Assembly (NCBI GenBank): GCA_964291625.2 | Contig: OZ220090.1 | Coordinates: 160,001-224,000 of the forward strand | Reading direction: 5' to 3' | DNA length: 64,000 bases | Origin: Candidatus Latescibacterota bacterium | Lineage (GTDB): Bacteria; Latescibacterota; UBA2968; UBA8231 | In this document: positions 3,102-41,201 of the stretch, piece after piece | How the letters are laid out: each line of letters starts with the position of its first letter | Position numbering within the stretch: the first letter of the stretch is position 1 | Program-made: the position numbers and the translations under genes | Notes under the pieces: model-generated | What the model saw: only the letters and a program-made list of their open reading frames with translations | What the model was told of the DNA's origin: nothing | Databases searched by the model: none

Positions 3102-6100
3102 TCACTCGCCCTTCAGGGCCGGCAGCAGGTCACGGCGCAGGGCCAGGCGCACGGCGGCGGCGTTGGCCGCCCATCCAGCCGCCAGGACCAGCCCCAGGGT
3201 CGACCCGAGGGAGGCCCACGGCAGGCTCGGGCCCAGGTGCGGCAGGCTGGCCACGGCCGCGGCCAGGGCCCCCAGGCCGATGCCGCCCAGCAGCAGCAGA
3301 CCGGTTTCCCAGAACAGCAGCCGCGCCAGCCGGCGGCGGCGGAAGCCGAAGGCCTGCAGCGCCGCCAGCTCGCGGCGCCGCTCGAAGGCGTTGCGCAGCA
3401 GCAGCAGGCCGAGGCCGACGGTGCCCAGCAGCAGGCCCAGTCCGCCGAGGCTCTGGAAGGTGGACAGGTAGGTCGTCTCGATCTCGAGGAAGCGGGCCAG
3501 CCGGTCGGCGGCGGGGGCGGCGTCGAAGCCGAAGTCGCGCAGGCCGCGCTCGAGGCCGGCGATCAGCGCCGGGGCTCGGGACTCGTCCGGCGTCTCCACG
3601 AGGAAGAAGCCGTACCCGGTCCGCTCCGGGAAGAGCCGTTCGAAGGCGGCTTCCGAGATCACCACCTCGCTCTGGAGGATCGACCTCTGCAGCAGGGCCA
3701 CCAGGCGCAGCCGCACGGGCCGGCCCGCGGCGTCCTCGATGGCAATCTCCTCCCCCAGGCCCCGGTGCAGGATCCACTGGGCCGAGTTGGCGTCGGCCAC
3801 CGCGGCCACCACCCCCGGGCCGAGGTCCTCCTCCAGCAGCCGCCAGGGATTGCCGTCCATGTGCGGGGCCAGGGGCCGATGGGAGGCGAAGGGGAAGCGG
3901 CCGGCCTCGATCAGGTCCGGCGGCGCTCCCAGCAGCCGCGGCCGCCCGGGCCGGTAGAGGTTCAGGCAGCTCACGTCCTCGCCGGGCAGGGACCGCAGCT
4001 GCACGATCCGGGCGCCTTCCAGGCTCTCGTCCAGGGAGGCGGGCAGTCCCAGCCCCCGGCGGACCCCGGCGTCGTTGAGGTCGCCGTGCACGGGCAGGTC
4101 CGACTCGGCGGCGATCGAGTAACCCCCGGCCCCCGGCGGCAGTCGGCTGTCCGATGCAACTGTCGGCCGGTGGGCGCCGACAGCGGCGATGACGAAGACG
4201 GCGCACGCCACCAGGCTGACGGCGGTGAGGCTGCGGCCGGGGTGGCGGCGGATGTTGCGGGCCCCGGCGGCGGCCAGCGATCCGGAACGCCCCGGGCGGG
4301 AAGAGGGTGCAGGCGCCTGCCGCAGCCACCGGGAGAGCCGGGCCAGCCCGGCCAGCAGCAGCAGGGCCCCGGCGGCGAAGAACAGGCCGGCGCGGATGCC
4401 CGGGGAGGCGGTGCTGCTGACGGCGGCGCCGGCGACCAGGGCGAGGGCGGCCAGGGCCGCCGCCGGCGCCAGCACGCGGGCGGCGCGGCCCCTCCCCCGG
4501 GCAGGCGACTCCACCTCCCCGGCGAGCAGGGCGCGCGCCGGCGTGCGCCCGAGGCGCCGCAGGGTGAGCACCATGGCCGCCAGGACCGCCGTCAGGGACA
4601 GCAGGGCGCCGGAGGCCAGGGTCCCGGCCGCCAGGTGCAGATGCAGGGCGGAGGTCCCCACGGCGGCCTGCCACCAGGTGCGCAGGCCCGCCATCATCAG
4701 CCAGCCGTACCCGGCGGCGCCGGCCAGGCCGAGGACGCAGCCGCCGCCGGCGACGACCAGGGCCTCGGCCATCAGCCGCCGGCGCACCGCCCCCGGAGGG
4801 AACCCGGCCGCCAGGAGCAGGCCGGCCTCGCCGGCCCTCTGCTCCACCCCCAGACGGAAGAGGAGCCCCGTGAGCAGGGCGGCCGCCGCGATCAGGAACA
4901 GGCTGAAGCCGAGGAAGAGTCCCCCGAAGTCGGTGGCCCCTTCGGCCGCGGCCAGCCCCTCGGCGCGCAGGGGACGCACCTCGTACCCGGCGGCCGCGGA
5001 CCCCGCCTCCTCGAGCAGGGCCTCCTCGAAACGCCGGGCCGCGCTCTCCAGGCTCTCGCCCTCCGGCGCCCGCAGCCGCACCGAGGTCAGCTCCCCGAAG
5101 CGGCTGGAGAACAGCGCCCGGCCTGCCTCGCGGGAGAGGAACGCCTTGGGGGCGGCCCGGTAGTGGTCCCAGTAGTCCTCGTCCCGCGGCCGGATGCGGT
5201 CCATGTCGACGGGGAAGGGCGCCGACCAGTCCGAGATGTCGTCGGTCCCTCCGATCCCCGGGTACTCCGGGGTCAGGGCCGGGTCCGCCCCCAGGCCGGC
5301 CATCTCCACGCCCCCGGAAATCCCGAGGACCGCCCGGCGCTCGATCAGCTCCTCCCGGGGGCCGAAGCCGTAGTAGTGGAGGACCGCCTCGTCGCCGGCC
5401 CCGGCCTGCAGGTCCCGCGCCGCCCAGTCGTTGAGGACGAGTCCCGCCCCGGCGGGCGGCACGGGCCCCCAGCTCCCGGGTGGATCAGCCTCCAGGGCGG
5501 CGATCGTCGAGTACGGCAGCGAGCGCTCCCCGACGTCGATGGCGTTGGCGAGGTAGGTGGAGACGGCGAGGCTTGGCAGTCCCAGGCGGCGGGCGGCGCC
5601 CAGGACGCTCTCCCCGAGAGAGTGGTCGAGGACGAACCGCCGGCTCTCCAGGGCCAGGTGGTCCCCCCGGCGGTGCAGGACCAGGTCGAGGTCGGAGAGC
5701 CCCAGGGCTTCGTCGAGGCGCCGGCGCAGAGCTGCCGGGCCGGAGGGCTCCTCCTCGGCGGATGGGGGCACCAGCAGGAGATCGGCGCGCCCCTGCAGAC
5801 CCAGGACTCGCTGCAGCTCCCCGAGGCGGGCGAAGAGGGTGCGCGGCGCCCGCTGGTGCGTCTCCAGGGCGAAGCGGCCGGGCCCGCGGTCGGGGATCAC
5901 CCCGGCCACCTCGCAGCGCAGGCGGCGCAGCAGCTCCTCCGGCCGGCGGCGCCCGAAGAGGGCCTCCGGGTTCACCTCGGCGGGACGCTGCAGGCTCAGC
6001 AGCAGGACGTCGCCCGGGGACGCGCCGAGTTCCCGCGCCAGGCTCGCGGTGAGCAGCACCGCGGGAGAGCCCGCGCTCCTGGCCGGAGTCTCCTCCAGGA

Positions 6101-6455
6101 AGGCGCGAAGGGCGTCGGCGGCCTCCCCCGGGAAGAGTTCGGCGAAGCGGCCGTCCACGCCGAGGACCTGGACCCTGCCCGCCCGGGCGCCGGAGCCGGT
6201 GTGGGCGGCGGAACCGGGCCGGAGCAGGACCGGCGCCGTGCCCGCGGGCAGTTCCGAGGCCAGGCCGGCGCGAAGGGAGCGGTCCCTGACGACGGCATGC
6301 TCGATGCGGCCCAGACGCTCCAGGGTCAGGCCCCGCAGGCTGGCCCGCACCGAGTCGCCCACGACCAGGGCCCCCGCGAGCACGGCCGTGCAGACCGCCG
6401 CGGCCAGGGCGGTGGCGGCGTGGACGCGCCGGTAGTGGATCAGGCTTCGGAGCAC
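3102..6455 (-). CDS. Large ABC transporter permease with duplicated FtsX/MacB-type halves
   Basis: About 1117 aa from GTG 6455 (MLRSLIHYRR). Two TM bundles with EQRAGEAGLLLAAGF and ERRRELAALQAFGF motifs, and two large periplasmic domains. Confidence 0.9.
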   Translation of the reverse strand: MLRSLIHYRRVHAATALAAAVCTAVLAGALVVGDSVRASLRGLTLERLGRIEHAVVRDRSLRAGLASELPAGTAPVLLRPGSAAHTGSGARAGRVQVLGVDGRFAELFPGEAADALRAFLEETPARSAGSPAVLLTASLARELGASPGDVLLLSLQRPAEVNPEALFGRRRPEELLRRLRCEVAGVIPDRGPGRFALETHQRAPRTLFARLGELQRVLGLQGRADLLLVPPSAEEEPSGPAALRRRLDEALGLSDLDLVLHRRGDHLALESRRFVLDHSLGESVLGAARRLGLPSLAVSTYLANAIDVGERSLPYSTIAALEADPPGSWGPVPPAGAGLVLNDWAARDLQAGAGDEAVLHYYGFGPREELIERRAVLGISGGVEMAGLGADPALTPEYPGIGGTDDISDWSAPFPVDMDRIRPRDEDYWDHYRAAPKAFLSREAGRALFSSRFGELTSVRLRAPEGESLESAARRFEEALLEEAGSAAAGYEVRPLRAEGLAAAEGATDFGGLFLGFSLFLIAAAALLTGLLFRLGVEQRAGEAGLLLAAGFPPGAVRRRLMAEALVVAGGGCVLGLAGAAGYGWLMMAGLRTWWQAAVGTSALHLHLAAGTLASGALLSLTAVLAAMVLTLRRLGRTPARALLAGEVESPARGRGRAARVLAPAAALAALALVAGAAVSSTASPGIRAGLFFAAGALLLLAGLARLSRWLRQAPAPSSRPGRSGSLAAAGARNIRRHPGRSLTAVSLVACAVFVIAAVGAHRPTVASDSRLPPGAGGYSIAAESDLPVHGDLNDAGVRRGLGLPASLDESLEGARIVQLRSLPGEDVSCLNLYRPGRPRLLGAPPDLIEAGRFPFASHRPLAPHMDGNPWRLLEEDLGPGVVAAVADANSAQWILHRGLGEEIAIEDAAGRPVRLRLVALLQRSILQSEVVISEAAFERLFPERTGYGFFLVETPDESRAPALIAGLERGLRDFGFDAAPAADRLARFLEIETTYLSTFQSLGGLGLLLGTVGLGLLLLRNAFERRRELAALQAFGFRRRRLARLLFWETGLLLLGGIGLGALAAAVASLPHLGPSLPWASLGSTLGLVLAAGWAANAAAVRLALRRDLLPALKGE

Positions 6456-7138
6456 CGTCCGTCGCGCAGCTCGAGGACGCGGTCGCAGCGCCGGGCCAGC
6501 CCCTCGTGGTGGGTGGCCAGCAGGAGGAGGGCGCCCTCCTGCCCGTGGAGCTCGAAGATCAGGTCGGCCACGGACCCGGCCGTGGTCCGGTCGAGGCTGC
6601 CCGTGGGCTCGTCGCACAGCAGCAGCCGCGGCCGCCGGACCAGGGCCCGGGCCACGGCCGCCCGTTGGCGCTCGCCGCCGGAGAGCTGTCCCGGCCGGTG
6701 TCCGAGGCGGTGGGAGAGGCCGACGCGCTCGATCAGCTCCCGGGCGCGCTCCTCGTCCTCCTCGCCGGGCTCTCCGAAGGCGAGGGTGGGGATCAGCACG
6801 TTCTCGAGCACGTCGAGCTGCGGCAGCAGGTGGTGCTCCTGGAAGACGAAGCCGACCGCGTCGTTGCGGAAGCGGGCCAGCTCCCTCTCGCCGAGGGCGA
6901 AGGGGTCGACACCATCGACTTCGAGGCCGCCGGCGCTCGGTTCGTCGAGGGTCCCGACCAGGTGCAGGAGGGTGCTCTTGCCCGACCCGGAGGGGCCGGT
7001 GACCGCCACCGAGGCGCCGGCCTCCACCGCCAGGTCGATCTCGACGAGGACGGGCACCTCGCCGTCGGCGCCCTCGAAGGACTTGCTCAGCCGGCGCAGG
7101 AGAAGGGCCGGCGGGCGGGGTTCCTCCGGGCCGGGCAC
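6440..7138 (-). CDS. ABC transporter ATP-binding protein (LolD/MacB-like)
   Basis: GPSGSGKST, GFVFQ, LSGGERQR, LLCDEPTG, ATH. Confidence 0.95.
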   Translation of the reverse strand: MPGPEEPRPPALLLRRLSKSFEGADGEVPVLVEIDLAVEAGASVAVTGPSGSGKSTLLHLVGTLDEPSAGGLEVDGVDPFALGERELARFRNDAVGFVFQEHHLLPQLDVLENVLIPTLAFGEPGEEDEERARELIERVGLSHRLGHRPGQLSGGERQRAAVARALVRRPRLLLCDEPTGSLDRTTAGSVADLIFELHGQEGALLLLATHHEGLARRCDRVLELRDGRCSEA

Positions 7139-7299: not shown

Positions 7300-7722
7300 T
7301 CAGGAGGGCCTGTGCTCCCTGATCCGGGAGGTGAAGGCCTTGGGGATCGGAACCGCCTTGAAGGATCCGTCCTCCCCGCACAGACAGCAGACCGAGGCGA
7401 TCTCGCCGCGGGCCACGGGCCGGCCGCCGCGGGTGAACTCGACAGCATAGGTCACCACTTTCTCGCCCTTGCGCTTCACCGTGAGATGGACCTCGACCTC
7501 CTCCTCGAAACGCACCGGCTCGAGGAACTCGCACGACGCCGACAGCCGCGGCCAGCCGAGACGGCGGCCCTCCAGCTGCATGTGCACCGACAGGCCCAGG
7601 GAGCGCAGGAAGGCGTGCTCGGCCTGCTCCATGAAGACGTAGAACCGCGAGAAGTGGGCGATGCCGGCCGCGTCGGTGTCCTCGAACTCGATGCGGCGGG
7701 TGGTGCGGAACTCGGAGGCCAC
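7300..7722 (-). CDS. Acyl-CoA thioesterase (YbgC/4HBT hot-dog fold)
   Basis: RIEFEDTDAAGIAHFSRF motif, 140 aa. Confidence 0.9.
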   Translation of the reverse strand: MASEFRTTRRIEFEDTDAAGIAHFSRFYVFMEQAEHAFLRSLGLSVHMQLEGRRLGWPRLSASCEFLEPVRFEEEVEVHLTVKRKGEKVVTYAVEFTRGGRPVARGEIASVCCLCGEDGSFKAVPIPKAFTSRIREHRPS

Positions 7723-7726: not shown

Positions 7727-8191
7727 TCAGGTGGGACGGAAGAGGGTGACCAGGCAGCCGCCCGCGGCGGCCATCAGGATGCCGAGGACGAAGGGCCAGT
7801 TGAGGGCGCCGCCGGCCGGCGGGTGCACGGCCATGGCCAGGACTGCGTTGACCACGGGCGCCCCGGCGAAGACGAGGGACATGACCACCGCGGGCGAGCC
7901 CTTGGCCCCGAAGGCCAGCAGGATGCCGAGGGCGCCCACGGCGCCCGCGATCCCGGCCAGGGTCGACCAGGTGACGCCAGCCGCGGGCATGCCCTGCAAC
8001 TGGGCGCCGTTGATCTTCAGCACGATCAGCGAGCCGAGGACGGCCACCACCAAGTAGGCGGCGCCGACGAAGAGGAAGGCCTGGAAGCGGCCGTTCACCG
8101 GATCGCCCATGGCGGTCACCCCGGTGTGGAGCAGAACGCCGTAGGTCCCCCAGAAGAGCACGGTCATCAGCGCGAAGAGCAGCCACGTCAT
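7727..8191 (-). CDS. Small integral membrane protein (DMT/EamA-like, about 5 TM)
   Basis: Hydrophobic helices, WLLFAL..FWG..G N-terminus, LVFAGAPVVN. Confidence 0.75.
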   Translation of the reverse strand: MTWLLFALMTVLFWGTYGVLLHTGVTAMGDPVNGRFQAFLFVGAAYLVVAVLGSLIVLKINGAQLQGMPAAGVTWSTLAGIAGAVGALGILLAFGAKGSPAVVMSLVFAGAPVVNAVLAMAVHPPAGGALNWPFVLGILMAAAGGCLVTLFRPT

Positions 8192-8210: not shown

Positions 8211-9503
8211 TCACCCGGTCACGAAGCGTTCGTAGACCTCGCGGGTCCTCGCCGCCATCAGCTCGTCGCCGCGGCTCTCGTGCACGGCGGCCCGGCCCCG
8301 GCGCCCGAGCCGCAGGCGCCGCTCCTCGTCGTCGTAGAGCGTCTGCAGGCCCGCGGCCACCGCCTCCGGCTCGGCCGCGTCCACCAGCAGCCCGCCGCCG
8401 GTGCCCTCCACCAGTTCCGGGTAGGCCCCGTGCCGGGGCTGCACCACGGGGACGCCGTTGGCCAGCGCCTCGAGCACGTACAGCCCCTTGGGCTCGTGGT
8501 AGGGGGCCGGCACGGTCAGGGCGTGCAGGCCCCGAAGGAACTCGATCTTGCCGGCGCGGTCCACGCTGCCTCGGTACTCGAAGCCGAGGCCGTCGCGTTC
8601 CAGCCCGCCCTTCACCTCCTCGAAGTACTCCCGGTCCGCCGGCCCCAGCCAGCCGGCCGCCTCGAGTCGCACGGCCTCCGGCCCCAGGCGCTCGGCCAGC
8701 AGGCGCAGGGCCCCGGCGGCCACGTGCAGGCCCTTCTCCGGGCAGATGCGGGCCAGGAAGCCGATTCGGAACGGTCCGGGCTCCCGGGCTTCCTCCGGCG
8801 GCGGGCCGTGCCCCTCCAGCCGCAGGCCGAGGGGCACCACGTGGAAGCGGTCCCGCCGCACCTCCAGGTATCCGGCCATGAAGTCGGCGTACGCGGCGCT
8901 CGGCGACAGGAACCCGTCCACCTCGGCGGCGCGCCTTCGCAGCTCCTCCCGGGCCTGCGCCCGGTACGGCTCCACCAGCCGGTCGAGGAAGATCTCCTCC
9001 CCCTGAACGCCGCACAGGACCGGCCGGCCGAGGGCCCGCTTCAGGGGTCCCGCCAGGCCGGCGAGCATGCTGTTGGTGAGCTGCACCAGGTCGGGGCGCA
9101 GCTCCCTCGCCAGCCACCGGCACAGCTCCTCCAGCTGCCGGCGCTGGCGCCCCTCCTCGCCCCGCAGGACCGAGAGGGTGAGGGCCCCCAGGTCGCGGGC
9201 CTCGGTGGCGCCGCCGAAGCGGTCGGCGGCCCAGCGCAGCAGGCCCGGCCGGTCGAGGGGGCGCGTCACCCAGGAGGGCAGGCGCCGCACGAGGGCGGAC
9301 TTCTGCGCCAGGTAGACGCCGATGCCGCCGTAGAACACCCGCTCCAGGCTGACATCCTCCTCGTCGGTGCGCAGCGGCGTGTAGGTCGGGACGAGGGCGA
9401 CATCGACGCCGAGGCCGGTGAGGGCCGCCGCCAGGGTGTTGTCGTGGATGCAGCTGCCGCAGTACATGCCGCCGGCGCCGGCGGTGATGTAGGCGACGCG
9501 CAC
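8211..9503 (-). CDS. Glycosyltransferase family 4
   Basis: ARICPEKG, EPKGLYVLEALANGVPVV GT-B motif. Unusual N-terminal GMYCGSC. Confidence 0.9.
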   Translation of the reverse strand: MRVAYITAGAGGMYCGSCIHDNTLAAALTGLGVDVALVPTYTPLRTDEEDVSLERVFYGGIGVYLAQKSALVRRLPSWVTRPLDRPGLLRWAADRFGGATEARDLGALTLSVLRGEEGRQRRQLEELCRWLARELRPDLVQLTNSMLAGLAGPLKRALGRPVLCGVQGEEIFLDRLVEPYRAQAREELRRRAAEVDGFLSPSAAYADFMAGYLEVRRDRFHVVPLGLRLEGHGPPPEEAREPGPFRIGFLARICPEKGLHVAAGALRLLAERLGPEAVRLEAAGWLGPADREYFEEVKGGLERDGLGFEYRGSVDRAGKIEFLRGLHALTVPAPYHEPKGLYVLEALANGVPVVQPRHGAYPELVEGTGGGLLVDAAEPEAVAAGLQTLYDDEERRLRLGRRGRAAVHESRGDELMAARTREVYERFVTG

Positions 9504-9509: not shown

Positions 9510-10970
9510 TCAGGCCCGGGGGAAGAAGCGGTCGACGACGGCCCGGTCCGGCGGCCTCGTGGCTAGCGACACGAGGATCATGGCCGCCGCCGAGACCGCG
9601 AGGATCACGGCCACGGGCATGACGCCGCCGGCCAGGGCATGGTCCGGGCTCTGCCAGCCGCGGACGAAGAACCAGGTCCACAGCACCACGACGCTGGCGA
9701 TGGAGGCGAAGGCCCCCCAGCGGGTGCTGCGCCGCCAGAACACGGCCGCCGCCACCACCGGGAAGAGGGAGGCGAAGCCGGTGAAGGACCAGACCCCGAG
9801 CTGGAAGATCGAGCGGTTCGAGACCTGGGCCAGGACGTAGGCGACGATGAGGACGAGTGCCACGAAGAGGCGGCCGTAGAGGACCTGCTGGCGCTCGGAC
9901 ATGCGGTCGTGGAAGCCGTAGTGGCGGACCACGTCCTGGGTGAACATGGTGCCCACCGACAGGGACTGGGAGTCGAGGGAGGACATGACGGCGGCGAAGA
10001 CCCCGGCCGCAAGCAGGCCGGCCATCACCTCCGGGGCGTGGAGATCTATCAGGCGCACGAGGATCGAGTTGGCTGCCGGGCCTTGGAGGGCCGGGAAGTC
10101 GAGGCGGCCGGCGACGCCGAGGACGACGCTGGGCACCCACACGGCGGCGATGCACAGCGGGTAGAGGACCAGGGGGGTGCGGAAGGTGCCGGCGCTGCGC
10201 GCCGTGAGCCAGTGCATGAACATGTGCGGGAACATGCCCACAGACAGGGGGATGCAGGTGTAGGTGAGCAGCTTCAGGGGCTTGATGTGGTCGCCGCGCA
10301 CCAGCAGGTCGGGATGGGACTCGCCCAGGGCCGTCATCACCGCCCGCAGCCCCCCCAGCTGGCTGATGATGACGTAGAAGGCGACTCCGCCGAGGATGGT
10401 GAAGACCAGGGTCTGGAAGGCGTTGGCCCAGGCGGTGCCGCGCAGGCCGCCGTAGCAGACGTAGGTCATGACCACGGCGCAGACCAGCAGGCCGCCGGCC
10501 CACTCGGGCACCTGGCCGCCGGTGATCTGCTGCAGCGTCAGGCCGCCGGCCATGATGCCGATCAGCAGGTAGGGCACCAGCAGGGCCACGAGAACGACGA
10601 AGAGCGCCAGGCCGAGACCGTCCGACTGCCAGCGCTGGCGGAAGAACTGGGCCTGGGTCAGGAAGCCGTGGCGCTTGCCGAGGGCCCAGACGCGGGTGCC
10701 GACGAAGAAGAACACGCACGGGATGACCAGGGCCGAGGAGGAAGCCATGAGGGAGAACACGCCGATGCCCTCGTGGTAGGCCTCGCCCGAGGCCCCGAGG
10801 ATGGCGAAGGCCGTCATGTTGGTCCCGAAGAGGGACATGAGCAGCAGGAAGGGGCCGATGGAGCGGCTGGCCACGAAGTAGTCCTCGCCCGTGCCCCGGA
10901 AGAGCCGGTGGCTCAGGGAGCCGACGAGGATCACCAGGCCGAGGTAGACGGCGATGACGGCGAGGGTCAT
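9510..10970 (-). CDS. Sodium:solute symporter family protein
   Basis: EDYFVASRS, YGGLRGTAW, FAAVMSSLDS, many TM helices. Start re-called to ATG 10970. Confidence 0.92.
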   Translation of the reverse strand: MTLAVIAVYLGLVILVGSLSHRLFRGTGEDYFVASRSIGPFLLLMSLFGTNMTAFAILGASGEAYHEGIGVFSLMASSSALVIPCVFFFVGTRVWALGKRHGFLTQAQFFRQRWQSDGLGLALFVVLVALLVPYLLIGIMAGGLTLQQITGGQVPEWAGGLLVCAVVMTYVCYGGLRGTAWANAFQTLVFTILGGVAFYVIISQLGGLRAVMTALGESHPDLLVRGDHIKPLKLLTYTCIPLSVGMFPHMFMHWLTARSAGTFRTPLVLYPLCIAAVWVPSVVLGVAGRLDFPALQGPAANSILVRLIDLHAPEVMAGLLAAGVFAAVMSSLDSQSLSVGTMFTQDVVRHYGFHDRMSERQQVLYGRLFVALVLIVAYVLAQVSNRSIFQLGVWSFTGFASLFPVVAAAVFWRRSTRWGAFASIASVVVLWTWFFVRGWQSPDHALAGGVMPVAVILAVSAAAMILVSLATRPPDRAVVDRFFPRA

Positions 10971-11194
10971 GGCCGCTCCTCCCCCTGCCGGTCGAGGTGC
11001 GCCGGCCAGGCGTGGGTCACCAGCAGGTAGAGCATCCCCGCGGCGGCGGCGCAGAAGGCGACATGGTAGACCAGCCCCGCCGGCAGCCCCGCCACCAGGC
11101 GGCCATCGTCCCACAGCCACAGGTCGTTGTGCAGCAGGTAGAGGATCCCCAGCAGGACGTAGACCATCCCGCGGGCGCGGGTCATACTAGGCAT
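10967..11194 (-). CDS. DUF3311-like small membrane partner of SSS transporters (intact copy)
   Basis: LHNDLWLWDDGRLVAGLP two-helix protein, ATGA-coupled to the SSS gene. Confidence 0.8.
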   Translation of the reverse strand: MPSMTRARGMVYVLLGILYLLHNDLWLWDDGRLVAGLPAGLVYHVAFCAAAAGMLYLLVTHAWPAHLDRQGEERP

Positions 11195-11387
11195 GCGCTC
11201 TCCCCGGTTTCGCTGGCGGGCGGCAGAATCCGCCGGAAGCTCCTCCATCGAAGGTCGTTCACTCTCACCCCCGGCGCCAACGACACGCCCCGCCGGTCTC
11301 GATGGGAGCCAGGGTCAATAGTAGATCGTAGCGCCGAGCCCTCCGAGTACCGCGGAGTGGGCCGAGGGGGCTTGAAGTCAGAAGAAT

Positions 11388-11423
11388 CGGGCAGAAAAAC
11401 CCGGAAGCGGGCGGATCTGCCCG
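11388..11423 (+). promoter_or_regulatory. Two 16-bp imperfect palindromes, candidate upstream activator sequences for a sigma-54 enhancer-binding protein
   Basis: CGGGCAGAAAAACCCG (11388-11403) and CGGGCGGATCTGCCCG (11408-11423), 20 bp apart, about 70-100 bp upstream of the -24 element. Confidence 0.65.
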
Positions 11424-11488
11424 GAACAGGGTACCTGTTCAGCAGTCACTATGACCGCCATTCGGTGGGAATCCCTCCGCCGAGGTAT

Positions 11489-15404: not shown

Positions 15405-15415
15405 TGGAGATCCCC

Positions 15416-33629: not shown

Positions 33630-34715
33630 CTAGTAGACCCCCACGGTGACGCTCTCCTCCAGGGAGGCCAGCAGGCGCAGGTCCCGCACCCCGTCCCAGG
33701 GACAGCTCCCGGTCGGCGGGGCCCGCTCGGCCTCGTCCCGCTCGAGGAAGCGGGGCATGAAGAACTCGCGGGTCAGGGTGGTCAGCAGCACGCGCCCGGT
33801 CTCGCCGTAGTCGACGGGGCGCCCCGGGTCGGCGGGATCGACCAGCTCGATCACGGCCCGCGGCTGCGGCGCGTAGTAGGTGATGGCGTAGTCGTCGGCC
33901 GGGTCGAAGGGCTTGCACAGGGCCAGGCCCATCAGGGTGTTGCCGTAGGTCGGCACGAAGGCCGCCCCCGGCACCAGCTCCTCGCGGGCGAAGCGGTGGA
34001 ACTGGGCGTCCATCTCGGTGCCGCCGCAGAACACGCCCCGGATGCCCGCCTTCACCAGGTCGATCTTCTCGCACAGGGCCTCCAGCAGGCGCGGCGTGGC
34101 GAAGAGGCAGCGGATGGTGTCGTGGGCCCGCAGGATCTTCAGGGCCTGGTCGACGACATGGGCCTTGTACGCGGCCAGCTCCTGGTGGGCCTGCCGGCGG
34201 ATCAGGACGTTCACCCAGCGCGGGTCGAGGTCGACGAGGAAGCAGAGGCCGCCGCGCATCTGGGCCAGGTGCTCCACGGCCAGGCGCAGGCGCCGCGGCC
34301 CCGAGGGGCCCAGCATCAGCCAGTCCCCGCCCCGGGGGAATCCCTCCTCGGGCAGGCTCTCGGAGAAGGCGGCGTAGTCGACCTGGAAGTCGCGGATGTT
34401 GATGCGGCTCTTGGGCACGCCCGTGGAGCCGCCGGTCTCGAAGACGAAGACGGGCTCCTCGGCGAACGCCCGGGGGACCCAGCGGCGCACGGGGCCGCCG
34501 CGCAGCCACTCGTCCCGGAAGAGACCGAGGACCTCCAGGTCGCCGTAGCCGCCGATGCGGTCGCGGGGGTCGAAGCCCAGCTCCGCGGCGCGCTCGAGCC
34601 AGAAGGGGCAGCCCGTGGCCGGGTCGAAGTGCCAGGCCACGATCTCGCGCACGTGGGCGTCGAGGGCCTCGCGGGCGGCGCCCACGCGATCCGCCAGACC
34701 GCCGGACCAGGTCAC
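33630..34715 (-). CDS. EhpF/GriC-like atypical adenylating enzyme (arylcarboxylate reductase subunit)
   Basis: WHFDPATGCPFW, FETGGSTGVPK, DLDPRWV, GGTEMD, YGNT, ERD and terminal GVY match the motif order I recall for phenazine-modifying EhpF. Confidence 0.78.
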   Translation of the reverse strand: MTWSGGLADRVGAAREALDAHVREIVAWHFDPATGCPFWLERAAELGFDPRDRIGGYGDLEVLGLFRDEWLRGGPVRRWVPRAFAEEPVFVFETGGSTGVPKSRINIRDFQVDYAAFSESLPEEGFPRGGDWLMLGPSGPRRLRLAVEHLAQMRGGLCFLVDLDPRWVNVLIRRQAHQELAAYKAHVVDQALKILRAHDTIRCLFATPRLLEALCEKIDLVKAGIRGVFCGGTEMDAQFHRFAREELVPGAAFVPTYGNTLMGLALCKPFDPADDYAITYYAPQPRAVIELVDPADPGRPVDYGETGRVLLTTLTREFFMPRFLERDEAERAPPTGSCPWDGVRDLRLLASLEESVTVGVY

Positions 34716-36145
34716 GGCCGGGGCGAGCCCAGGGCGAAGAGGGTGTTGCGGGAGGCCACGTAGAGGATGCCGTCCTCGGCGGCCGGCGTGGTGTACACGG
34801 CGCTGCCCATGTTGATCTCGGCGAGCACCTCCAGCTCGGGACCGGCCCGGAAGATGGTCACGTCGCCGTCCTCGTCGCCGATATGGACCTTGCCGTCGGC
34901 CACGAAGGGGGAGCCCCAGATGGCGGCGAAGGTGTCGTAGGTCCACTTCTTCTCGCCGGTGCCGGCGTCGAGGCAGTAGACGAAGCCGCTGAGGTCGGCG
35001 ATGTAGAGCAGGCCGTCGTGGACGGCGGCGGTGGACATGGTGCGGTTGTACTCCTCGCCGCCCAGGTGCCAGACCGCGTGGGAGCCGGTCACGTCGCCGG
35101 TGCCGGTGCCGTCGATGCACCACAGGTTGCCCCGGCCCTCGCCGTGCTCCGGGTCCTGGCCGACGCCGAGGTAGACGCGGTCGCCGATGATGACCGGCGT
35201 CGAGATCAGGTTGTTGCGCGTGCCCCGGCCTCCCAGCTCCCAGACCGAGTCCTCGGGGTTGCAGTCGAACTTCCAGATCAACTCGCCGGTCTCCGGCTCG
35301 AAGGAGTAGAGCCAGCCGTCGCCGCCGGGAAACAGGACCTGCGGCCGGCCCCCCATGACGCCGATGGCCGGGTTCGACCACTGGCCGTGGAGGATCCCCA
35401 TGCCGGGGGAGGCGTCCTCCCAGACCAGCTCGCCGGTGGACTTGCGCAGGGCGATGAAGGAGGGGGCGAAGGGCGAGGGGATGTGCACGTGTCCCTCGTC
35501 GACGCCGTTGGAGGTGACCACGAAGAGCAGGTCGTCGAGGCCGACGGGGGAGCAGGTGGCCAGGTTGTGGGGGAAGACGTCGAGCTCCTCGATCATGTCG
35601 AAGGACCAGACGAGGTCGGCGTCGGCCAGGCCGGTGGAGGCCTCGCCGGTGAGGGGGCCGTCGTTCTCGCCGTCGGCGAAGCCCTCGGTGTCGACGCAGA
35701 CCACCTGGGCCTGGTTGGAGATGTAGTAGAGGCGGTCGCCGTCGACGTAGGGGGTGGAGCAGATGCCCTGCTGGGGCCAGTCGTTGACGCGGCCGGCGGG
35801 CAGCTTGGTGTGGGTCGACTGCCACAGGAAGGCGCCCCCGGGCCGGGCGAAGGCCATGAGCACGCCGCGGTCGCCGGTGAGCCGGGGGTCGCGCAGGCCC
35901 TGGTTGTTGGTGCCCACGAAGAGCTTGTCGCCCGCCAGCAGGGGCCCGGCGTAGGTCTGGGAGCCGAGGGGGGCGGACCAGAGCACGCCCTCGCCGGTGG
36001 CCACGTCCCACTCGACCGGCAGGTCGACCGCCTCGGAGACCATGTTGCGGGCCCGGGTGTGCCCCCACATCGCCTCCTGGGCGCCGGCGGGAAGGGCGGC
36101 GGCGAGGGCCGCCGCCAGAAGCAGGAGGAATTCTGGTCTATTCAT
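34712..36145 (-). CDS. Secreted PQQ-like beta-propeller protein, acidic and Cys-containing
   Basis: Signal peptide, LGSQTYAGP, GICSTP, HGQWSNP, DPEHGEG, WGSP blades. Confidence 0.88.
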   Translation of the reverse strand: MNRPEFLLLLAAALAAALPAGAQEAMWGHTRARNMVSEAVDLPVEWDVATGEGVLWSAPLGSQTYAGPLLAGDKLFVGTNNQGLRDPRLTGDRGVLMAFARPGGAFLWQSTHTKLPAGRVNDWPQQGICSTPYVDGDRLYYISNQAQVVCVDTEGFADGENDGPLTGEASTGLADADLVWSFDMIEELDVFPHNLATCSPVGLDDLLFVVTSNGVDEGHVHIPSPFAPSFIALRKSTGELVWEDASPGMGILHGQWSNPAIGVMGGRPQVLFPGGDGWLYSFEPETGELIWKFDCNPEDSVWELGGRGTRNNLISTPVIIGDRVYLGVGQDPEHGEGRGNLWCIDGTGTGDVTGSHAVWHLGGEEYNRTMSTAAVHDGLLYIADLSGFVYCLDAGTGEKKWTYDTFAAIWGSPFVADGKVHIGDEDGDVTIFRAGPELEVLAEINMGSAVYTTPAAEDGILYVASRNTLFALGSPRP

Positions 36146-38342
36146 CGATCCTCAGCACCACGTCGTCGTAGTAGATCTCGGCGGCCGAGTGCCCGTAGAG
36201 CCCCGGGGCGCCCTGGCGGTTCGGCAGCGGGTCGGGGGCCTCGATCGTCCAGGCGGAGGGCTCCGGGTCCCCCCGGCGCCAGACCTTGCCCCGCACCACG
36301 GCCCCCTCCGGCTCCAGGTCGACCCGCATCTTCATGGTGTACCAGACGCCGCTCTCCCACTCGAAGGGGACGCTGGCGGCCATGCGCAGATCCGAGGCCC
36401 AGGAGCGGACCTGGAGCTGCTGGTGGTTGCCCATCAGGTCGAGGGTGTAGCGCTGGGCGATGAGGCCCATGTCCGGGAGGTTGCGCCGGTGCCGGTCGCC
36501 CATCATCGACGCCTGGATGGTGTAGCCGCTCAGGTCCGCCGGCCCGAGGTAGACGTTGGAGCGCTGCAGGCCGCGGCGGGCGAACGGCTTGTGGAGCAGG
36601 TCCTCGCCCTTCACCCGGCGCAGGAGGAACTTGCCGCCCGCCGAGCCGATCCAGTGCCCGGGGACCGGCCGGTCGTCCTCCTCGACGGCGCCGGCGGCCC
36701 CGAAGTCGAGGCTCCACGAGCCCCGCGTCAGCACGCGCACCCGGGCGCCGGCCGTGAAGCCGCCGGCGCGGAGGGTGACCGCGCCCCCGTGGTCGGGACC
36801 GGGATCCGCCGTGAACACGCCGTCCCGGAGGCGGCCGGCCAGACCCTCCGTCGACCAGTCTCCCGCCTCGACGGCGCCGGTGACCCGCCCCATGGCGTCG
36901 ACGAGGCGCGCCTCGAAGCGCACGGAGCCGCCCGGCTCGACGGTGGTCTCGGCGGGAACCAGCTGCAGGCCCACGGCCTCGCCGGGGGGGCCTTCCGCCG
37001 CCGGTGGCGCCGGCCGCGCCTTCTCCTCCCCGGCCGCGGGTCCGCCGCCGAGGCAGTACAGGCCCTCGTCGGTGGTGAAGTAGACGCGGCCGCCGGCCAC
37101 GGCGGGGGAGCCGAAGATCTCCGCCGGACCGCCGTCGGGCGCCAGGACCTGGTCGCTGTCGAGCAGCTCGCCGTCGGTCTGCCCCGGGCGAAGGATGTGG
37201 AAGCGCCCGTTGACGGTAGTTGCGTAGAGCTTGCCGTCGGCAACCACCGGGGAGCCCCGGCCCACGGTGCCGAGATTGCGGTGCCAGAGCCGCCGCCCGC
37301 TGCCGGCGTCGAGGGCGTGCAGGTTCCCGGAGTTGTCGATCGCGTAGAGGACGCCGCCGGACAGGGCCGGCGAGGCGTACCCGCACAGGGCGTCGTGGCG
37401 CCACAGCTCGTGGGTGGCGGTCACGTCCCCCCGGCCGCGCCCGTCGATGCAGACGACGCGCCCCATGGTGTTGCCGTCGACGTTCTCCTCGCCGTGGCTG
37501 GCGTAGACGCGGTCGCCGCCGACCACCACGGCGGCGTTGAGGCCGCGGCGGCTCAGCCGGAACCCCCAGAGCTTCTCGCCCGTGGCCAGGCGCATGGCGT
37601 AGACCGAGCCGTCGGCGTTGCCGGCGACGACCAGCCGCTCGCCGCCGATCTCGGCGACCACGGGGGTCGAGTAGGTCGTGTCGAGGGGCCGCCCGCCCGG
37701 GGCCGAGACCCACACGACCTCGCCCGTCTCCCCGTCGAAGGCGAAGTAGCGGTCGCGGGGCACGCCGTGGGCGCCCCAGCCGCTGCTGAGGAAGTTGACG
37801 ATCACCAGGCCGCCGGCGACGACGGGGGTCTGCACGCGGCCGCCGTACCCCGAGATGCGGCCGAACTCCTCGGTGAGGGAGCGCTCCCACAGCAGCTCGC
37901 CGCCGCGGCTGTAGCAGCGCAGCAGCCCCTGGACCCCGTGGACGTAGATGCGCCCCGTCCGCGGATCGGCCGCCGGGCTGGCCCAGCCGACGCGGTTGAA
38001 GGGGATCGTCGTGTGGAAGACGTTGAAGCGGTCCTCCCAGAGCAGCTCGCCGGTGGCCGCGTCGAAGGCGGCGACCCGCTCCTGCTCGGTGACGTCGAGG
38101 CCGGCGCGGCCCGTGACGAAGACGCGGCCGTCGAGCACGACGGGGGTGGAGCGGCCGGTGAAGTCCGCCTTCCAGGCCTGGCCGGGGCCGCCCGGCGTCC
38201 AGGACTCGACGAGGCCGGTCTCCGGGGCGCTGCCGTTCTGGAAGGGTCCCCGCCAGGCGGGCCAGTCGCTCCACCCGGGGGCGGCCGGCAGGAGGGGGCC
38301 GAGGGCGGCGAGGAGCAGGATATGCAGGAGGGCGGGTCTCAC
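36138..38342 (-). CDS. Secreted PQQ-like beta-propeller protein with C-terminal Ig-like and beta-sandwich domains
   Basis: Signal peptide, DWPAWRGPFQNG, multiple blades, about 270-aa beta-rich C-terminal extension. Confidence 0.88.
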   Translation of the reverse strand: MRPALLHILLLAALGPLLPAAPGWSDWPAWRGPFQNGSAPETGLVESWTPGGPGQAWKADFTGRSTPVVLDGRVFVTGRAGLDVTEQERVAAFDAATGELLWEDRFNVFHTTIPFNRVGWASPAADPRTGRIYVHGVQGLLRCYSRGGELLWERSLTEEFGRISGYGGRVQTPVVAGGLVIVNFLSSGWGAHGVPRDRYFAFDGETGEVVWVSAPGGRPLDTTYSTPVVAEIGGERLVVAGNADGSVYAMRLATGEKLWGFRLSRRGLNAAVVVGGDRVYASHGEENVDGNTMGRVVCIDGRGRGDVTATHELWRHDALCGYASPALSGGVLYAIDNSGNLHALDAGSGRRLWHRNLGTVGRGSPVVADGKLYATTVNGRFHILRPGQTDGELLDSDQVLAPDGGPAEIFGSPAVAGGRVYFTTDEGLYCLGGGPAAGEEKARPAPPAAEGPPGEAVGLQLVPAETTVEPGGSVRFEARLVDAMGRVTGAVEAGDWSTEGLAGRLRDGVFTADPGPDHGGAVTLRAGGFTAGARVRVLTRGSWSLDFGAAGAVEEDDRPVPGHWIGSAGGKFLLRRVKGEDLLHKPFARRGLQRSNVYLGPADLSGYTIQASMMGDRHRRNLPDMGLIAQRYTLDLMGNHQQLQVRSWASDLRMAASVPFEWESGVWYTMKMRVDLEPEGAVVRGKVWRRGDPEPSAWTIEAPDPLPNRQGAPGLYGHSAAEIYYDDVVLRIDE

Positions 38343-38494
38343 GGGGCGGGAAGGTACTCGTGGCGGCGGGTGATGTCAGGTTGCGGGGGTGGCGGTTCGC
38401 GGTGTCTCATGCCGCCAAAGCGTCATCCTGATCGCTCGATGGCACCACACGTTCGTTCGCCGACTCGGCAGCGTAGAGCAGGGCCGCCTGCACC

Positions 38495-38744
38495 GCCCCT
38501 CTCCACCTACCAGACCCGGGAGCAGCGCCATCCCGCTGGGCGGCAAGTGCGCGGGATTGGTGGATCGCTGCAAAGATTCTGCGAACCCATGGCTGAACCA
38601 GGAGAGTGTAGGCACCCGCCAATTCTCGACTGGGCAGGGGAATCTCGTATGAAGCCATATCCGCCCAATTGGTGCGCGGCATTTTCGTCCCGTAGATGCA
38701 GAGTCCGAGCAATCGACGAATTCTGAGCTGGAGAAATAGCCCAT
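38495..38744 (-). pseudogene. hsdS: 3' fragment of type I restriction-modification specificity subunit
   Basis: Across frameshifts: SEFVD..STGTKMPRTNW..EIPLP..LAAQRD/ALLPGLVGGE, matching the HsdS C-terminal LRDxLLPKLxSGE repeat. Confidence 0.75.
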
Positions 38745-38747
38745 GGG

Positions 38748-39097
38748 CTACACACCCTCGGGGGAGTTCTCAGTTTCCTCCGCGTCCTCAAAGGGATTGA
38801 GGACACGGACCCCCGTCGGCTCGAAGTGGCGCACGTTGCGTGTGACCACGCAAAGGCCGTGGACAAGGGCCGTGGCTGCGATGAGCAGGTCAACCCGGTC
38901 CGCGAAAGAGGCGGTCGTCTGTTCCATCCAGGCGGCGAGATGGCGCGCAAACTCAGGGTCATGCCGTCTCTGCTGCGACACACGACGCTGATGAAGACGT
39001 CGGCAGGCCGCTGAGTTTGAAGCCACTTGGTCGGAGCCGGATGGCGGTCGGGTCTGCGCAAGACAGACACCACATCGGTGTCGAGGAGGTACATCAC
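38748..39097 (-). pseudogene. vapC: Decayed VapC (PIN) toxin
   Basis: YLLDTDVVS..FISVV, then a frameshift near 38980 with loss of the usual E-containing helix, then DLLIAATALVHGL.VVTRNVRHF..VLNPF. Confidence 0.8.
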
Positions 39098-39354
39098 GAC
39101 TCCAGCGAACGCGGAGACAGCGGGATCCGCTCAAACTCGAAGTCATCGCCGCCGTCTGGGATGGCCAGCAGGTGTTCGATGAAGGACGGGACGTTCTCCG
39201 GCGGCTGTTTGCGCAGCCTCTCGTACTCCTTCACCGACAGCACAACGACGGCGGGTTTGCCGCGCCGGGTCACCTGTTGCGGTTCCCCCGCAAGGGCGGC
39301 GTCCACCACGGCGCTGAAGCGGTTCTTGGCGTCTTGGAGAGCCCATTGGGTCAT
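39094..39354 (-). CDS. Phd/YefM-family antitoxin
   Basis: WALQDAKNRFSAVVDAA..GEPQQVTRRGKPAVVVLS. GGAG RBS before ATG 39354. Confidence 0.9.
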   Translation of the reverse strand: MTQWALQDAKNRFSAVVDAALAGEPQQVTRRGKPAVVVLSVKEYERLRKQPPENVPSFIEHLLAIPDGGDDFEFERIPLSPRSLES

Positions 39355-39455
39355 TGATTCCACTCCTGGCTTGGATTGGCTGAATGTATTATCGATGCCA
39401 ACTGCCCGGCATGGAGCACTGGTTGGCCTCCACAAAGAGTACACCCGGTGCTTGG

Positions 39456-39749
39456 CTACACATCCGTGCCGGGGGCCCTGGCCTGGATCAGATTCATGCG
39501 GCACTGTTCCCAACGAGCCAATCCCCGTCCCCAGTACCGCCCGAGCTGGAGAAGTCGCTCGGCTTCCAGCTGCGCGTAGGCCTCCTTGAAGGCGTCGGAG
39601 ATGATCAGGCCGAGGACGACATGCTTGTACTCGGCTGCGTCCATGCTGCCCCGCAGGGCGTCGGCCATCCGCCACAGGTCGGACCTGTAGCCCGTGATGA
39701 CGTCCGAATCGGGCCCCTTGCCGGCCCTTCGCCGTCCTGCCGTCGTCAT
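39456..39749 (-). pseudogene. hsdM: 5' fragment of type I R-M methyltransferase
   Basis: LWRMADALRGSMDAAEYKHVVLGLI-ISDAF, with the usual FLKY missing. Truncated. Confidence 0.82.
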
Positions 39750-39878
39750 CGGGTTGTTGGAGAATACATGGGTTCAGGATGCTATGGTGCTATCTTTATG
39801 CAGGAATATGCTGCTGGAGATATGCCGACACCAACAGGGAATTCCGTGCCGCGCCGCGGAAAACCGGGAGAGTGACCC

Positions 39879-41201
39879 ATGCGAATCCTGATCCCCTCCA
39901 TCCTGCTGGCCGCCGCCGCCGCCGCGGACAACTGGCCCCAGTGGCGCGGCCCCCACCAGAACGGGGTCAGCGCCGCCACCGGTCTGCCCTCGCAGTGGAG
40001 CGCCTCCGAGGGCGTCCTGTGGAAGGCCCCGCTGCCCTCCTGGAGCGGCGGCACCCCCATCGTCTGGGGCGACCGCGTCTTCGTCACCTCGCCTTCGGCG
40101 CCGGAGGCCGGGGCCGCCGAAGGCCAGGGGGAGGGCCGCCGGCGCAAGCGCGATCCGGGCGGCGACGACCTGCTGCTGCTGTGCCTGTCGCGCACCGACG
40201 GCAAGGAGCTGTGGCGCGCCGTCCTCGCCGAGGGCAACCGGACCTGGAACAAGCACAACAACACCTCGCCGTCGCCGGTCACCGACGGGAATCACGTCTG
40301 GGCGGTGACCGGCACCGGCGTGGTCGCCGCCTTCACCATGGAGGGCGAGCCGGTCTGGCGGCGGGACCTGCAGGCGGAGTTCGGGGCGTTCGGCCTCATG
40401 TGGGGCTACGCCTCGTCGCCGGCCCTGCACGGCGGCCGCCTGATCGTGGAGGTCCTGCACGGGATGCACACCGACGATCCGTCGTACCTCGCCGCCTTCG
40501 ACGCCGCCTCCGGCGAGCTGGCCTGGCGGGTCGAGCGGCCCACGGACGCGCCTGACGAGTCGCCGGACGCGTACACGACCCCGGCCGTGCTGAGCACGGG
40601 GGCCGGCGAGCAGATCGTCGTCTCCGGGGGCGACTACCTCACCGGCCACGACCCGGCCTCGGGCCGGGAGCTGTGGCGCGTCGGCGGCCTCAACCCGGGC
40701 CGGGAGGGCAACTACCGCATCGTCGGGTCGCCGATCGCCGTGGGCGGCATGGTCTACGCCCAGAGCCGCCGCAAGCCGCTGCTCGCCTTCCGGATCGGCG
40801 AGGGGGGCCGCGTCGGCCAGGACGACCTGGCCTGGCGCTGGGAGGGGGCCGGAGCCCCCGACGTGCCCACCGCCGCCTGCGACGGCACCCATTTCTACAT
40901 GGTCGACGACCGCGGCCTGGCGACCGCCCTCGACGCGCGCACCGGCCGGGTCGTGTGGGGGCCGGAGCGCACCGCCCAGGGCCGCGTCAGCGCTTCGCCG
41001 GTGGTGGCCGACGGCAAGCTCTACGTGCTCAACGAGGACGGCGTCACCACGGTGCTGGCCGCCGGCGCCGAGTACGGACACCTGGCCACCAACCCCCTCG
41101 ACGGGTCCTTCACCCTGTCCTCGCCGGCGGTGGCGGGCTCGCAGCTGTTCATCCGCACCGCCGCGCACCTGTACTGTATCGACGGGTCCGGAGGGGGCTG
41201 A
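39879..41201 (+). CDS. Secreted PQQ-like beta-propeller protein, divergent from the main operon
   Basis: Signal peptide, DNWPQWRGPHQNG, SPSPVTDG, ASSP, YTTP, ASPV blades. Confidence 0.9.
   Translation: MRILIPSILLAAAAAADNWPQWRGPHQNGVSAATGLPSQWSASEGVLWKAPLPSWSGGTPIVWGDRVFVTSPSAPEAGAAEGQGEGRRRKRDPGGDDLLLLCLSRTDGKELWRAVLAEGNRTWNKHNNTSPSPVTDGNHVWAVTGTGVVAAFTMEGEPVWRRDLQAEFGAFGLMWGYASSPALHGGRLIVEVLHGMHTDDPSYLAAFDAASGELAWRVERPTDAPDESPDAYTTPAVLSTGAGEQIVVSGGDYLTGHDPASGRELWRVGGLNPGREGNYRIVGSPIAVGGMVYAQSRRKPLLAFRIGEGGRVGQDDLAWRWEGAGAPDVPTAACDGTHFYMVDDRGLATALDARTGRVVWGPERTAQGRVSASPVVADGKLYVLNEDGVTTVLAAGAEYGHLATNPLDGSFTLSSPAVAGSQLFIRTAAHLYCIDGSGGG

Follow-up and report, generated by a model that had tools for sequence, protein, structure and literature searches.

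Why would a bacterium keep genes predicted to reduce, tailor and glycosylate an acid beside a set of probably secreted propeller proteins? The question is raised by a locus at positions 3102 to 41201 of a 64,000-nucleotide (nt) stretch from a Candidatus Latescibacterota bacterium (assembly GCA_964291625.2, contig OZ220090.1, positions 160,001 to 224,000), referred to here as the window. The locus holds a 17-gene system that is real, widespread and not one clean operon, and its core genes co-occur in three little-studied phyla. The core consists of an EhpF-like adenylating enzyme, an EhpG-like reductase, a glycosyltransferase of family 4 (GT4), an EamA-like membrane protein, a MacB/Lol-type ATP-binding cassette (ABC) permease and the propeller P34. 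The preferred explanation, held tentatively and at a little short of an even chance, is that the core genes form a pathway that would reduce an acid, glycosylate it and deliver the product to the periplasm, where propellers would use it as a ligand or cofactor. The acid substrate is probably aromatic. What surprises most about the system, and lends itself best to testing, is how tightly it is tied to a multi-copy clade of probably secreted propellers. Co-inheritance gives a defined core and optional modules, and the question is therefore directly testable. The core and near-core genes are as follows (aa, amino acids).

34712-36145, minus strand: P34, a predicted 8-bladed propeller, probably secreted (477 aa; 60-96% identity across phyla; core)
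33630-34715, minus strand: EhpF/GriC-type adenylating enzyme (361 aa; core)
32183-33626, minus strand: EhpG/GriD-type reductase of the aldehyde dehydrogenase (ALDH) fold with a conserved Cys (split by a one-base assembly error near 32622; core)
31041-32177, minus strand: Fe-containing alcohol dehydrogenase, Fe-ADH (near-core)
8211-9503, minus strand: GT4 glycosyltransferase with a conserved N-terminal CxxC (core)
7727-8191, minus strand: EamA-like membrane protein of 154 aa with five predicted transmembrane helices (an automatic Atlas name, without a Pfam match; core)
3102-6455, minus strand: double-FtsX MacB/Lol-type ABC permease (1117 aa; core)

Co-inheritance across genomes

The genes were followed in 151 Acidobacteriota genomes (completeness of at least 93% requested), for which kinship is not given and lineage effects are uncorrected. 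Thresholds were set for each gene before the search, except the halogenase cut-off of 1e-100, set after the search where the scores leave a gap, and the best 4-17 candidates per genome were scored. This genome-wide profiling covered the nine cluster genes counted in the next paragraph. The negative counts include G067, a genome flagged as unpublished, which also holds one of the five distant halogenase matches.

The EhpF-like gene is present in 39 of the 151 genomes, here called carriers. GT4 is found in all 39 carriers and in none of the 112 EhpF-negative genomes, while P34, the EamA-like gene and the ABC permease are each found in 39/39 carriers and in a single EhpF-negative genome (1/112, G135). 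The latter genome is fragmented: its permease, next to the EamA-like gene, is truncated by the start of a contig, and the exception fits an assembly gap. Fe-ADH (36/39) and the radical S-adenosylmethionine (SAM) gene (35/39) are likewise absent from all 112 non-carriers. The halogenase is found in 34/39 carriers at E<1e-100, and five non-carriers have only relatives of 35-40% identity. Both the halogenase and the radical SAM gene are missing in 4/39 carriers. PaaK is present in 14/39 carriers and 1/112 non-carriers. The EhpF-like gene and GT4 lie within 25 kb of each other in only 17 of the 39 carriers (15 have them on one contig but more than 25 kb apart, and 7 on separate contigs), so their co-occurrence is not just linkage. 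A reductase query on five EhpF-negative genomes, without a positive control, gave no match.

The propellers follow the same division. The median number of first-look PQQ_2 candidates is 56 (22-322) for the 39 carriers and 7 (0-64) for the listed non-carriers (109 of 112), so the number of propellers tracks the gene set as an earlier note on this DNA had proposed; a rank test on these counts ignores kinship and therefore overstates the difference. The top 30 PQQ_2 matches of four high-count non-carriers are not of the window type (best E 1e-22 to the window's propellers), whereas the top matches of carrier G146 are. A profile of the WPQWRG clade (E 1e-40, best 12 candidates per genome scored) matches all 39 carriers and G135, with 4 to at least 12 matches each, and none of the 111 others.

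Co-occurrence could also reflect the shared ancestry of a few lineages, with a propeller clade that has no functional tie to the enzymes. The kinship of the sample leaves room for this explanation, and three non-carriers of the same genus each retain a single clade match (E 1e-66, 4e-68 and 5e-31). It is nevertheless extremely unlikely, for four propeller orthologues stand inside the operon in three phyla and the presence of EhpF varies among close relatives. In the window's class an EhpF match is found in 29/41 genomes (one weak), in its family in 14/24 (one weak) and in its genus in 5/9 others. GT4 follows where tested, with 0/4 in EhpF-negative genomes of the class (the positive control matched), and 7 of the 10 EhpF-negative genomes tested in the class have no clade member.

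Synteny in relatives

Gene order was compared in the best 80 of 502 EhpF loci in GTDB, with flanks of up to 10 kb and many shorter. Near EhpF are found P34 (76/80), P36 (74/80), the reductase (71/80), Fe-ADH (35/80), P29 (32/80), the radical SAM gene (25/80), PaaK (13/80), the halogenase (12/80) and P39 (2/80). Loci labelled Latescibacterota, Poribacteria and Acidobacteriota preserve the gene order. The nearest named loci by identity of the EhpF-like protein are labelled Gemmatimonadaceae (96-97%) and Latescibacterota (79-81%), followed by many from Poribacteria and a few from Acidobacteriota. Close relatives are also present in sponge metagenome runs.

Among nine relatives with longer stretches, G011 holds all 17 genes within about 22 kb, and the same order, less some members, is found in G017, G023, G040 and G032. 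Among 20 Acidobacteriota loci, some are long, some are reduced to EhpF-reductase-GT4-ABC and some to the EhpF-reductase pair alone. The conservation of the gene set that the earlier note had expected is seen in the 80 loci, in the nine longer regions and in the Acidobacteriota loci.

Two of the proposed members drop out. HAD and NUDIX occur in 0/80 EhpF loci, as does the propeller P22; HAD and P22 recur only in the same-genus G006 among the nine longer regions, and NUDIX follows the permease in none of G011, G017, G023, G040 and G032. The NUDIX gene (2020-2622) also lies outside the coordinates of the cluster to which the earlier note had assigned it. HAD, NUDIX, SfsA, the 2-oxoglutarate (2OG) gene and a lactonase were rejected as members.

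The adenylating enzyme and reductase pair

The 361-aa EhpF-like protein matches EhpF in the PDB (E 3e-38, residues 11-350) and has 31% identity over 369 aa, at full length, to the gene of the Pantoea ehp cluster, which bears out its proposed EhpF/GriC-like identity. The reductase had been called GriD/LuxC-like. Its intact orthologue from locus L013 is 27% identical over 481 aa to the gene that follows Pantoea ehpF (EhpG by position) and keeps the Cys at the catalytic position in this alignment, so the EhpG/GriD part of the name stands; there is no LuxC-family match. An identity of the pair as LuxE/LuxC has no match in Pfam or NCBIfam, and EhpF/EhpG is preferred. By homology, the pair is a new member of the EhpF/EhpG two-protein family with a predicted carboxylate-reducing activity. 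Passages of PMC10179220 describe GriC as adenylating and GriD as reducing 3-amino-4-hydroxybenzoic acid (3,4-AHBA), and those of PMC3175449 describe EhpF-O as converting phenazine dicarboxylate.

The clade is tight. At least 8000 candidates pass E 1e-10, the best 120 are all at least 72% identical, and the window's clade is 60-97% conserved across phyla. Plasmid homologues annotated as arylcarboxylate reductase or phenazine biosynthesis protein have 30-41% identity (29 records), and plasmid proteins annotated as arylcarboxylate reductase match at 33-37%. One Halalkalicoccus plasmid (L222:6559-10617) has a sodium:solute symporter (SSS) gene with EhpF-like and EhpG-like genes and without propellers, GT4 or ABC genes; it is a separate small module of the same enzyme family.

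The propellers

All six propellers in the locus score above the PQQ_2 cut-off, five on the minus strand and one divergent, as had been noticed earlier. Each has an N-terminal hydrophobic stretch by a hydropathy heuristic (not SignalP), so the cluster propellers are probably secreted. They score 51-155 bits against the BamB model TIGR03300, below its cut-off of 285 bits, and fall far below the cut-offs of the NCBIfam dehydrogenase models. The six had been taken as a unit. P36, P34, P29 and P27 are indeed conserved in position, whereas P22 and P39 are mobile and belong to a wider clade, named WPQWRG here.

The predicted model of P34 is an 8-bladed propeller (pLDDT 84). In a wide VIA-align search its best likenesses are YxaL (Z 35.4, root-mean-square deviation 2.3 A, 331 residues aligned) and BamB (Z 34.2). 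P34 orthologues have many invariant His, Asp and Glu residues, and also Cys, in loops, a comparison of limited power among sequences 60-90% identical. In one Atlas cluster of P34 look-alikes, Verrucomicrobiota are the commonest, which is the sole hint of the Planctomycetota and Verrucomicrobiota neighbourhoods that the earlier note had mentioned.

The clade differs in size between carriers, with 5 copies in the source genome G000 (4 in the window), 3 in G011, 7 in G032, 8 in G043 and at least 28 in G085. In G146 (L160-L189), 125 PQQ_2 matches were found among 150 scored candidates, and they are a mix of WPQWRG propellers of about 450 aa and dehydrogenase-like proteins of 600-900 aa. The pyrroloquinoline quinone (PQQ) gene pqqC (TIGR02111) was not found in G000, G011 and G032, three of the five carriers checked; therefore, the system needs no home-made PQQ there.

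Predicted tailoring, sugar transfer and transport

The remaining genes of the system, with two propellers of the wider clade (P22 and P39), are listed below.

36138-38342, minus strand: P36, a PQQ_2-type propeller with extra C-terminal domains, probably secreted (734 aa; conserved first gene)
29824-30990, minus strand: P29, a probably secreted propeller (position conserved)
28457-29761, minus strand: HemN/class C-like radical SAM enzyme (optional module)
27135-28457, minus strand: P27, a probably secreted WPQWRG-clade propeller (position often conserved)
25864-27120, minus strand: PaaK-like aryl/acyl-coenzyme A (CoA) ligase (optional)
24623-25867, minus strand: flavin-dependent halogenase-like enzyme, PltA/Bmp2/CndH type (conserved Lys72 and WxWxIP; optional module)
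22178-23467, minus strand: P22, a WPQWRG-clade propeller (position not conserved beyond the genus)
10967-11185, minus strand: DUF3311 small membrane protein, partner of the SSS symporter (optional)
9510-10970, minus strand: SSS symporter (optional importer)
7300-7722, minus strand: 4HBT/YbgC-type thioesterase (by Pfam and relatives)
6440-7138, minus strand: LolD/YbbA-like ABC ATPase (by Pfam and NCBIfam)
39879-41201, plus strand: P39, a divergent WPQWRG-clade propeller and candidate client (beside the cluster mainly in close relatives)

The flavoenzyme belongs to the Trp_halogenase family (PF04820, 97.9 bits, WFWYIP motif) and its best PDB matches are halogenases of the PltA/Bmp2/CndH type (E 4e-66 to 1e-43). 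It has GxGxxG, Lys72 and WxWxIP; the latter two, which we take to be halogenase-defining motifs, are conserved in 14 aligned sequences. The enzyme is flavin-dependent halogenase-like, of the PltA/Bmp2 type, and halogenation is predicted from its motifs. The radical SAM protein has matches to HemN and to the methyltransferase NocN.

These tailoring genes suggest another explanation, in which the cluster makes a secreted halogenated aromatic for signalling or defence and the propellers are receptors or resistance proteins. The halogenase, the BagE-like PaaK ligase and the radical SAM enzyme fit it, EhpF/EhpG and GriC/GriD come from antibiotic and pigment pathways, and the sponge survey discussed below, in the passages available, counts clusters of halogenase, adenylation and PQQ-like genes as natural-product clusters. 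However, the core stays in the 4/39 carriers that lack the halogenase and the radical SAM gene, and the genes are single-copy, 60-75% conserved and complete even after scattering, which is housekeeping-like rather than the mark of a mobile cluster. A secreted metabolite is therefore decidedly unlikely.

Besides the SSS/DUF3311 importer, a TonB-dependent siderophore-type receptor (TIGR01783, above cut-off) lies inside the cluster in 13 loci (e.g. L144:11289-13469 and L013:7754-9712). It is the only further recurring member found among the neighbours, and G000 has no orthologue of it (best match 29% over 131 aa). The propellers could also serve in scavenging or catabolism by freeing an aromatic outside the cell, with TonB and SSS importing it and the alcohol dehydrogenase, ALDH-fold and adenylating enzymes converting or detoxifying it. 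The importers are embedded in the cluster, both dehydrogenase folds are reversible, and on the haloarchaeal plasmid an SSS gene accompanies a distant EhpF/EhpG couple in a setting without propellers. Nevertheless, scavenging is very unlikely, as the exporter and GT4 belong to the core and the importers are an optional extra, the halogenase and methylase are biosynthetic, and no ring-cleavage genes recur among the neighbours. The radical SAM enzyme, halogenase, PaaK, SSS/DUF3311 importer and TonB receptor are all optional and not core; the import, methylation and halogenation genes of the earlier proposal are thus present without being part of the core.

On the export side, the ABC ATPase has its best NCBIfam models in LolD and YbbA. 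The 154-aa membrane protein takes its name from Atlas neighbours called EamA-like, and GT4 has only distant relatives in the PDB. The N-terminal CxxC of GT4 (8211-9503) is invariant in 16/16 aligned sequences and may serve metal binding, redox chemistry or structure. The product could instead be an envelope glycoconjugate, such as an aryl- or acyl-alcohol glycolipid or a surface anchor, that the EamA-like protein flips and the Lol/MacB-type ABC complex moves, with the propellers as carriers, assembly factors or tethered clients. GT4, the EamA-like protein and the ABC permease are the most strictly co-inherited partners, and the ATPase models, the likeness of P34 to the BamB and YxaL scaffolds and the purely structural invariants of the WPQWRG clade agree with such a role. 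Against it, no acyltransferase, acyl carrier protein or ketosynthase is found in the cluster or among other recurring neighbours, and the many invariant polar loop residues of P34 are more enzyme-like. An envelope product is considered unlikely.

Proposed function

The preferred pathway, reduction and glycosylation of an acid for periplasmic propellers, would run in six steps. The precursor would be taken up by SSS/DUF3311, and by the TonB receptor where present, as an optional step. It may then be tailored as a CoA ester (PaaK), halogenated and methylated by the radical SAM enzyme before release by the thioesterase, also optionally and as these families suggest. The EhpF/EhpG pair would adenylate the acid with ATP and reduce it with NAD(P)H to an aldehyde, following the precedent of GriC/GriD. 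Fe-ADH could reduce the aldehyde to an alcohol that would receive a sugar from GT4. The product would pass through the EamA-like protein and be extracted by the ABC complex. Finishing or loading may fall to P34, P36, P29 and P27, and scattered WPQWRG paralogs would use the product, as co-occurrence suggests.

A more specific form of this pathway is on the doubtful side: the 17 genes may make and install a new periplasmic cofactor (aromatic, glycosylated and optionally halogenated or methylated) for the WPQWRG propellers, whose database labels of BamB or PQQ-binding would then be wrong. If true, this would explain up to dozens of PQQ-like proteins in Acidobacteriota, Poribacteria and Latescibacterota, sometimes in the absence of pqqC.

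Several observations, besides the uncorrected kinship of the 151 genomes and the clade matches kept in same-genus non-carriers, weigh against a ligand or cofactor for the propellers. The P34 model scores lower against PQQ dehydrogenases (Z 27-28) than against YxaL and BamB. In the wider WPQWRG clade only W, G and P are invariant (32-row profile), and hence the clade shows no polar cofactor site in common. Its copy number is low in the window's genome (5) and in G011 (3) compared with G085 (at least 28). Long dehydrogenase-like proteins make up part of the PQQ_2 excess in G146, and G146 and G085 have pqqC elsewhere in the genome. The WPQWRG profile was derived from carrier sequences, and its matches in carriers are partly expected for that reason. 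Finally, no flavin reductase (not sought genome-wide) or carrier protein gene is found in the cluster.

In about a quarter of the sampled Acidobacteriota (39/151), and in many sponge symbionts, the pathway is complete and highly conserved. It has a nearly one-to-one tie to a large, probably secreted clade, which annotation usually calls BamB or PQQ repeat. To solve it would bring to light a new cofactor or envelope molecule, assign a function to a very large clade of proteins and establish two-protein carboxylate reductases of a new class.

Gene layout, inserts and assembly errors

The source genome (G000) has 5.9 Mb in two contigs, 70% GC and 95% completeness. Gene calling used a hexamer model that had been trained on this genome, and the proteins were scanned against Pfam and NCBIfam. 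Every gene named in the earlier note was found at or near the place given there, and its gene list missed two conserved members, DUF3311 and the EamA-like gene. The 17 genes lie on the minus strand in two tight blocks. Block 1 (38342-24623) runs from P36 through P34, the EhpF-like gene, the reductase, Fe-ADH, P29, the radical SAM gene, P27 and the PaaK-like gene to the halogenase-like gene, and block 2 (11185-3102) from DUF3311 through SSS, GT4, the EamA-like gene, the thioesterase and the ABC ATPase to the ABC permease. The 15 junctions inside the blocks comprise 6 overlaps, 6 within 20 nt and 3 of 50-161 nt. The description of a single run of mostly overlapping genes therefore holds for 6/15 junctions and fails for the run as a whole, which is discontinuous because of gaps of 1155, 2690 and 7549 nt between the halogenase-like gene, P22, HAD and DUF3311. 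P22, the 2OG gene, HAD and a 7.5 kb plus-strand insert lie between the blocks. Contigs from two RNA libraries of one study span parts of the cluster; such contigs cannot show transcription.

The insert (11184-18753) has a lower GC content (0.64) and encodes an MkoA-like superfamily 1 helicase (11455-14178; PADLOC MkoA, E 7e-81), a 409-aa protein without assignment, a phospholipase D (PLD) family protein (15416-16918; DrmC and MkoB matches) and an RtcR/PspF-type CARF-AAA-HTH regulator (16693-18420). The insert is strain-specific, and its genes are like those of a type I Mokosh defence cassette that has gained one more gene in the middle. Run X1 has both filled and empty sites; one of its contigs spans the insert without any difference, and contigs from X1, X2 and X6 have the empty site. 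The same-genus G006 lacks both the 7.5 kb insert and the 2OG-Fe(II) gene (19839-22139). The spacers at 23468-24622 and 38343-39878 are of low GC (0.61-0.63), with small open reading frames that look by eye like toxin-antitoxin or type I restriction-modification fragments; two were tested and have no Pfam match. Poribacteria loci have many such inserts between the cluster genes, with the order still kept.

The reading frame of the reductase is broken by one extra base near 32622. Since this base is missing in 8/8 related loci (6 distinct sequences) and in an otherwise identical X1 contig, the frameshift is an assembly error, and the gene is therefore intact in the organism. A true pseudogene was rejected on the same grounds. 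Another single-base assembly error is located near 27181, where P27 ends.

Elsewhere in the window, 59413-63528 holds a proteasome-type cassette of an ARC-like ATPase, a Pup-ligase-family protein, UBact (62565-62708, above the NF033388 cut-off) and a proteasome subunit. A DnaE2-like polymerase is followed by an ImuB/IMS-family gene (42873-47419), a 544-aa repeat protein (54426-56060) has a C-terminal LamG domain and about 450 N-terminal aa without a Pfam match, and SfsA nuclease is fused to a DUF123 domain (875-2023).

Comparison with known systems

The closest known pair is EhpF/EhpG of the D-alanylgriseoluteic acid (phenazine) cluster of Pantoea agglomerans (PDB 3L2K, 3HGU), in which an adenylating enzyme and an ALDH-fold reductase are likewise adjacent. 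The window has no phenazine core genes, and the partners here are GT4, ABC, EamA-like and propeller genes. No polyketide synthase, nonribosomal peptide synthetase, phz or pqq genes are among the 44 window proteins scanned, in agreement with what had been read from the letters. PhzA/B (PF03284) was found in 0/5 carriers genome-wide, in a search without a positive control, and in none of the recurring neighbours. GriC/GriD of the grixazone pathway of Streptomyces griseus have the same two-protein design, as likened through the description available in PMC10179220. The window cluster has no phenoxazinone synthase, and GriH-type dehydroquinate synthase II (PF01959) was found in 0/5 carriers while three control genomes matched (GriI was not searched).

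The baaA/baaB locus of a planctomycete also yields a halogenated aromatic acid, 3,5-dibromo-p-anisic acid, without a polyketide synthase or nonribosomal peptide synthetase; BaaB is about 44% similar to Bmp5 and lies beside a chorismate lyase, according to the part of bioRxiv 10.1101/723874 available. Compared by description, identity with baaAB is not supported, since the window halogenase is of the PltA/Bmp2/CndH type and no chorismate lyase recurs. A chorismate-derived precursor likewise finds no support among the neighbours in 39 loci, the range covered, where no chorismate-using gene recurs.

The Halo_AMP pseudoclass of sponge microbiomes likewise joins a halogenase and an adenylation enzyme, with Bmp2 and BagE as best matches. 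Passages of that survey (bioRxiv 10.64898/2026.08.03.742642) describe clusters from Acidobacteriota, Latescibacterota and Poribacteria with frequent PQQ-like, TonB, glycosyltransferase, thioesterase, radical SAM and TA genes. The window system is probably among these clusters, catalogued there and uncharacterised. The pseudoclass is defined by Trp_halogenase and AMP-binding within 5 kb; in the window the PaaK-like ligase adjoining the halogenase has an AMP-binding_C_2 match only, and the PF00501-positive EhpF-like gene is 7.8 kb away. The focus cluster CC A has P450s, whereas the window cluster has none, and the Halo_AMP passages available name neither the EhpF/EhpG pair, the halogenase-free core nor the co-inheritance with propellers. 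Excerpts of other sponge work list PQQ-repeat proteins among the eukaryote-like proteins of Poribacteria (PMC3909097), and a lanthanide-PQQ preprint, as far as available, deals with six-bladed and dehydrogenase-type propellers.

No characterisation of the system was found in the open-access full text of PMC and bioRxiv, where subscription journals are largely missing, and the whole system is without a characterised counterpart in this literature. The earlier note had staked its proposal on co-occurrence of the genes in other genomes, on an EhpF/GriC-like protein at 33630-34715 and on the lack of a matching characterised pathway; the genes co-occur, the protein is EhpF/GriC-like and no such pathway was found. 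In PQQ biosynthesis with its quinoprotein clients, and in mycofactocin, one biosynthetic set is co-inherited with an expanded client family. The window cluster has no pqq genes, its propellers are about 430 aa long and nearer to YxaL/BamB, and no peptide precursor was seen; its likeness to the PQQ systems lies in this logic and in the 8-bladed PQQ/BamB fold class.

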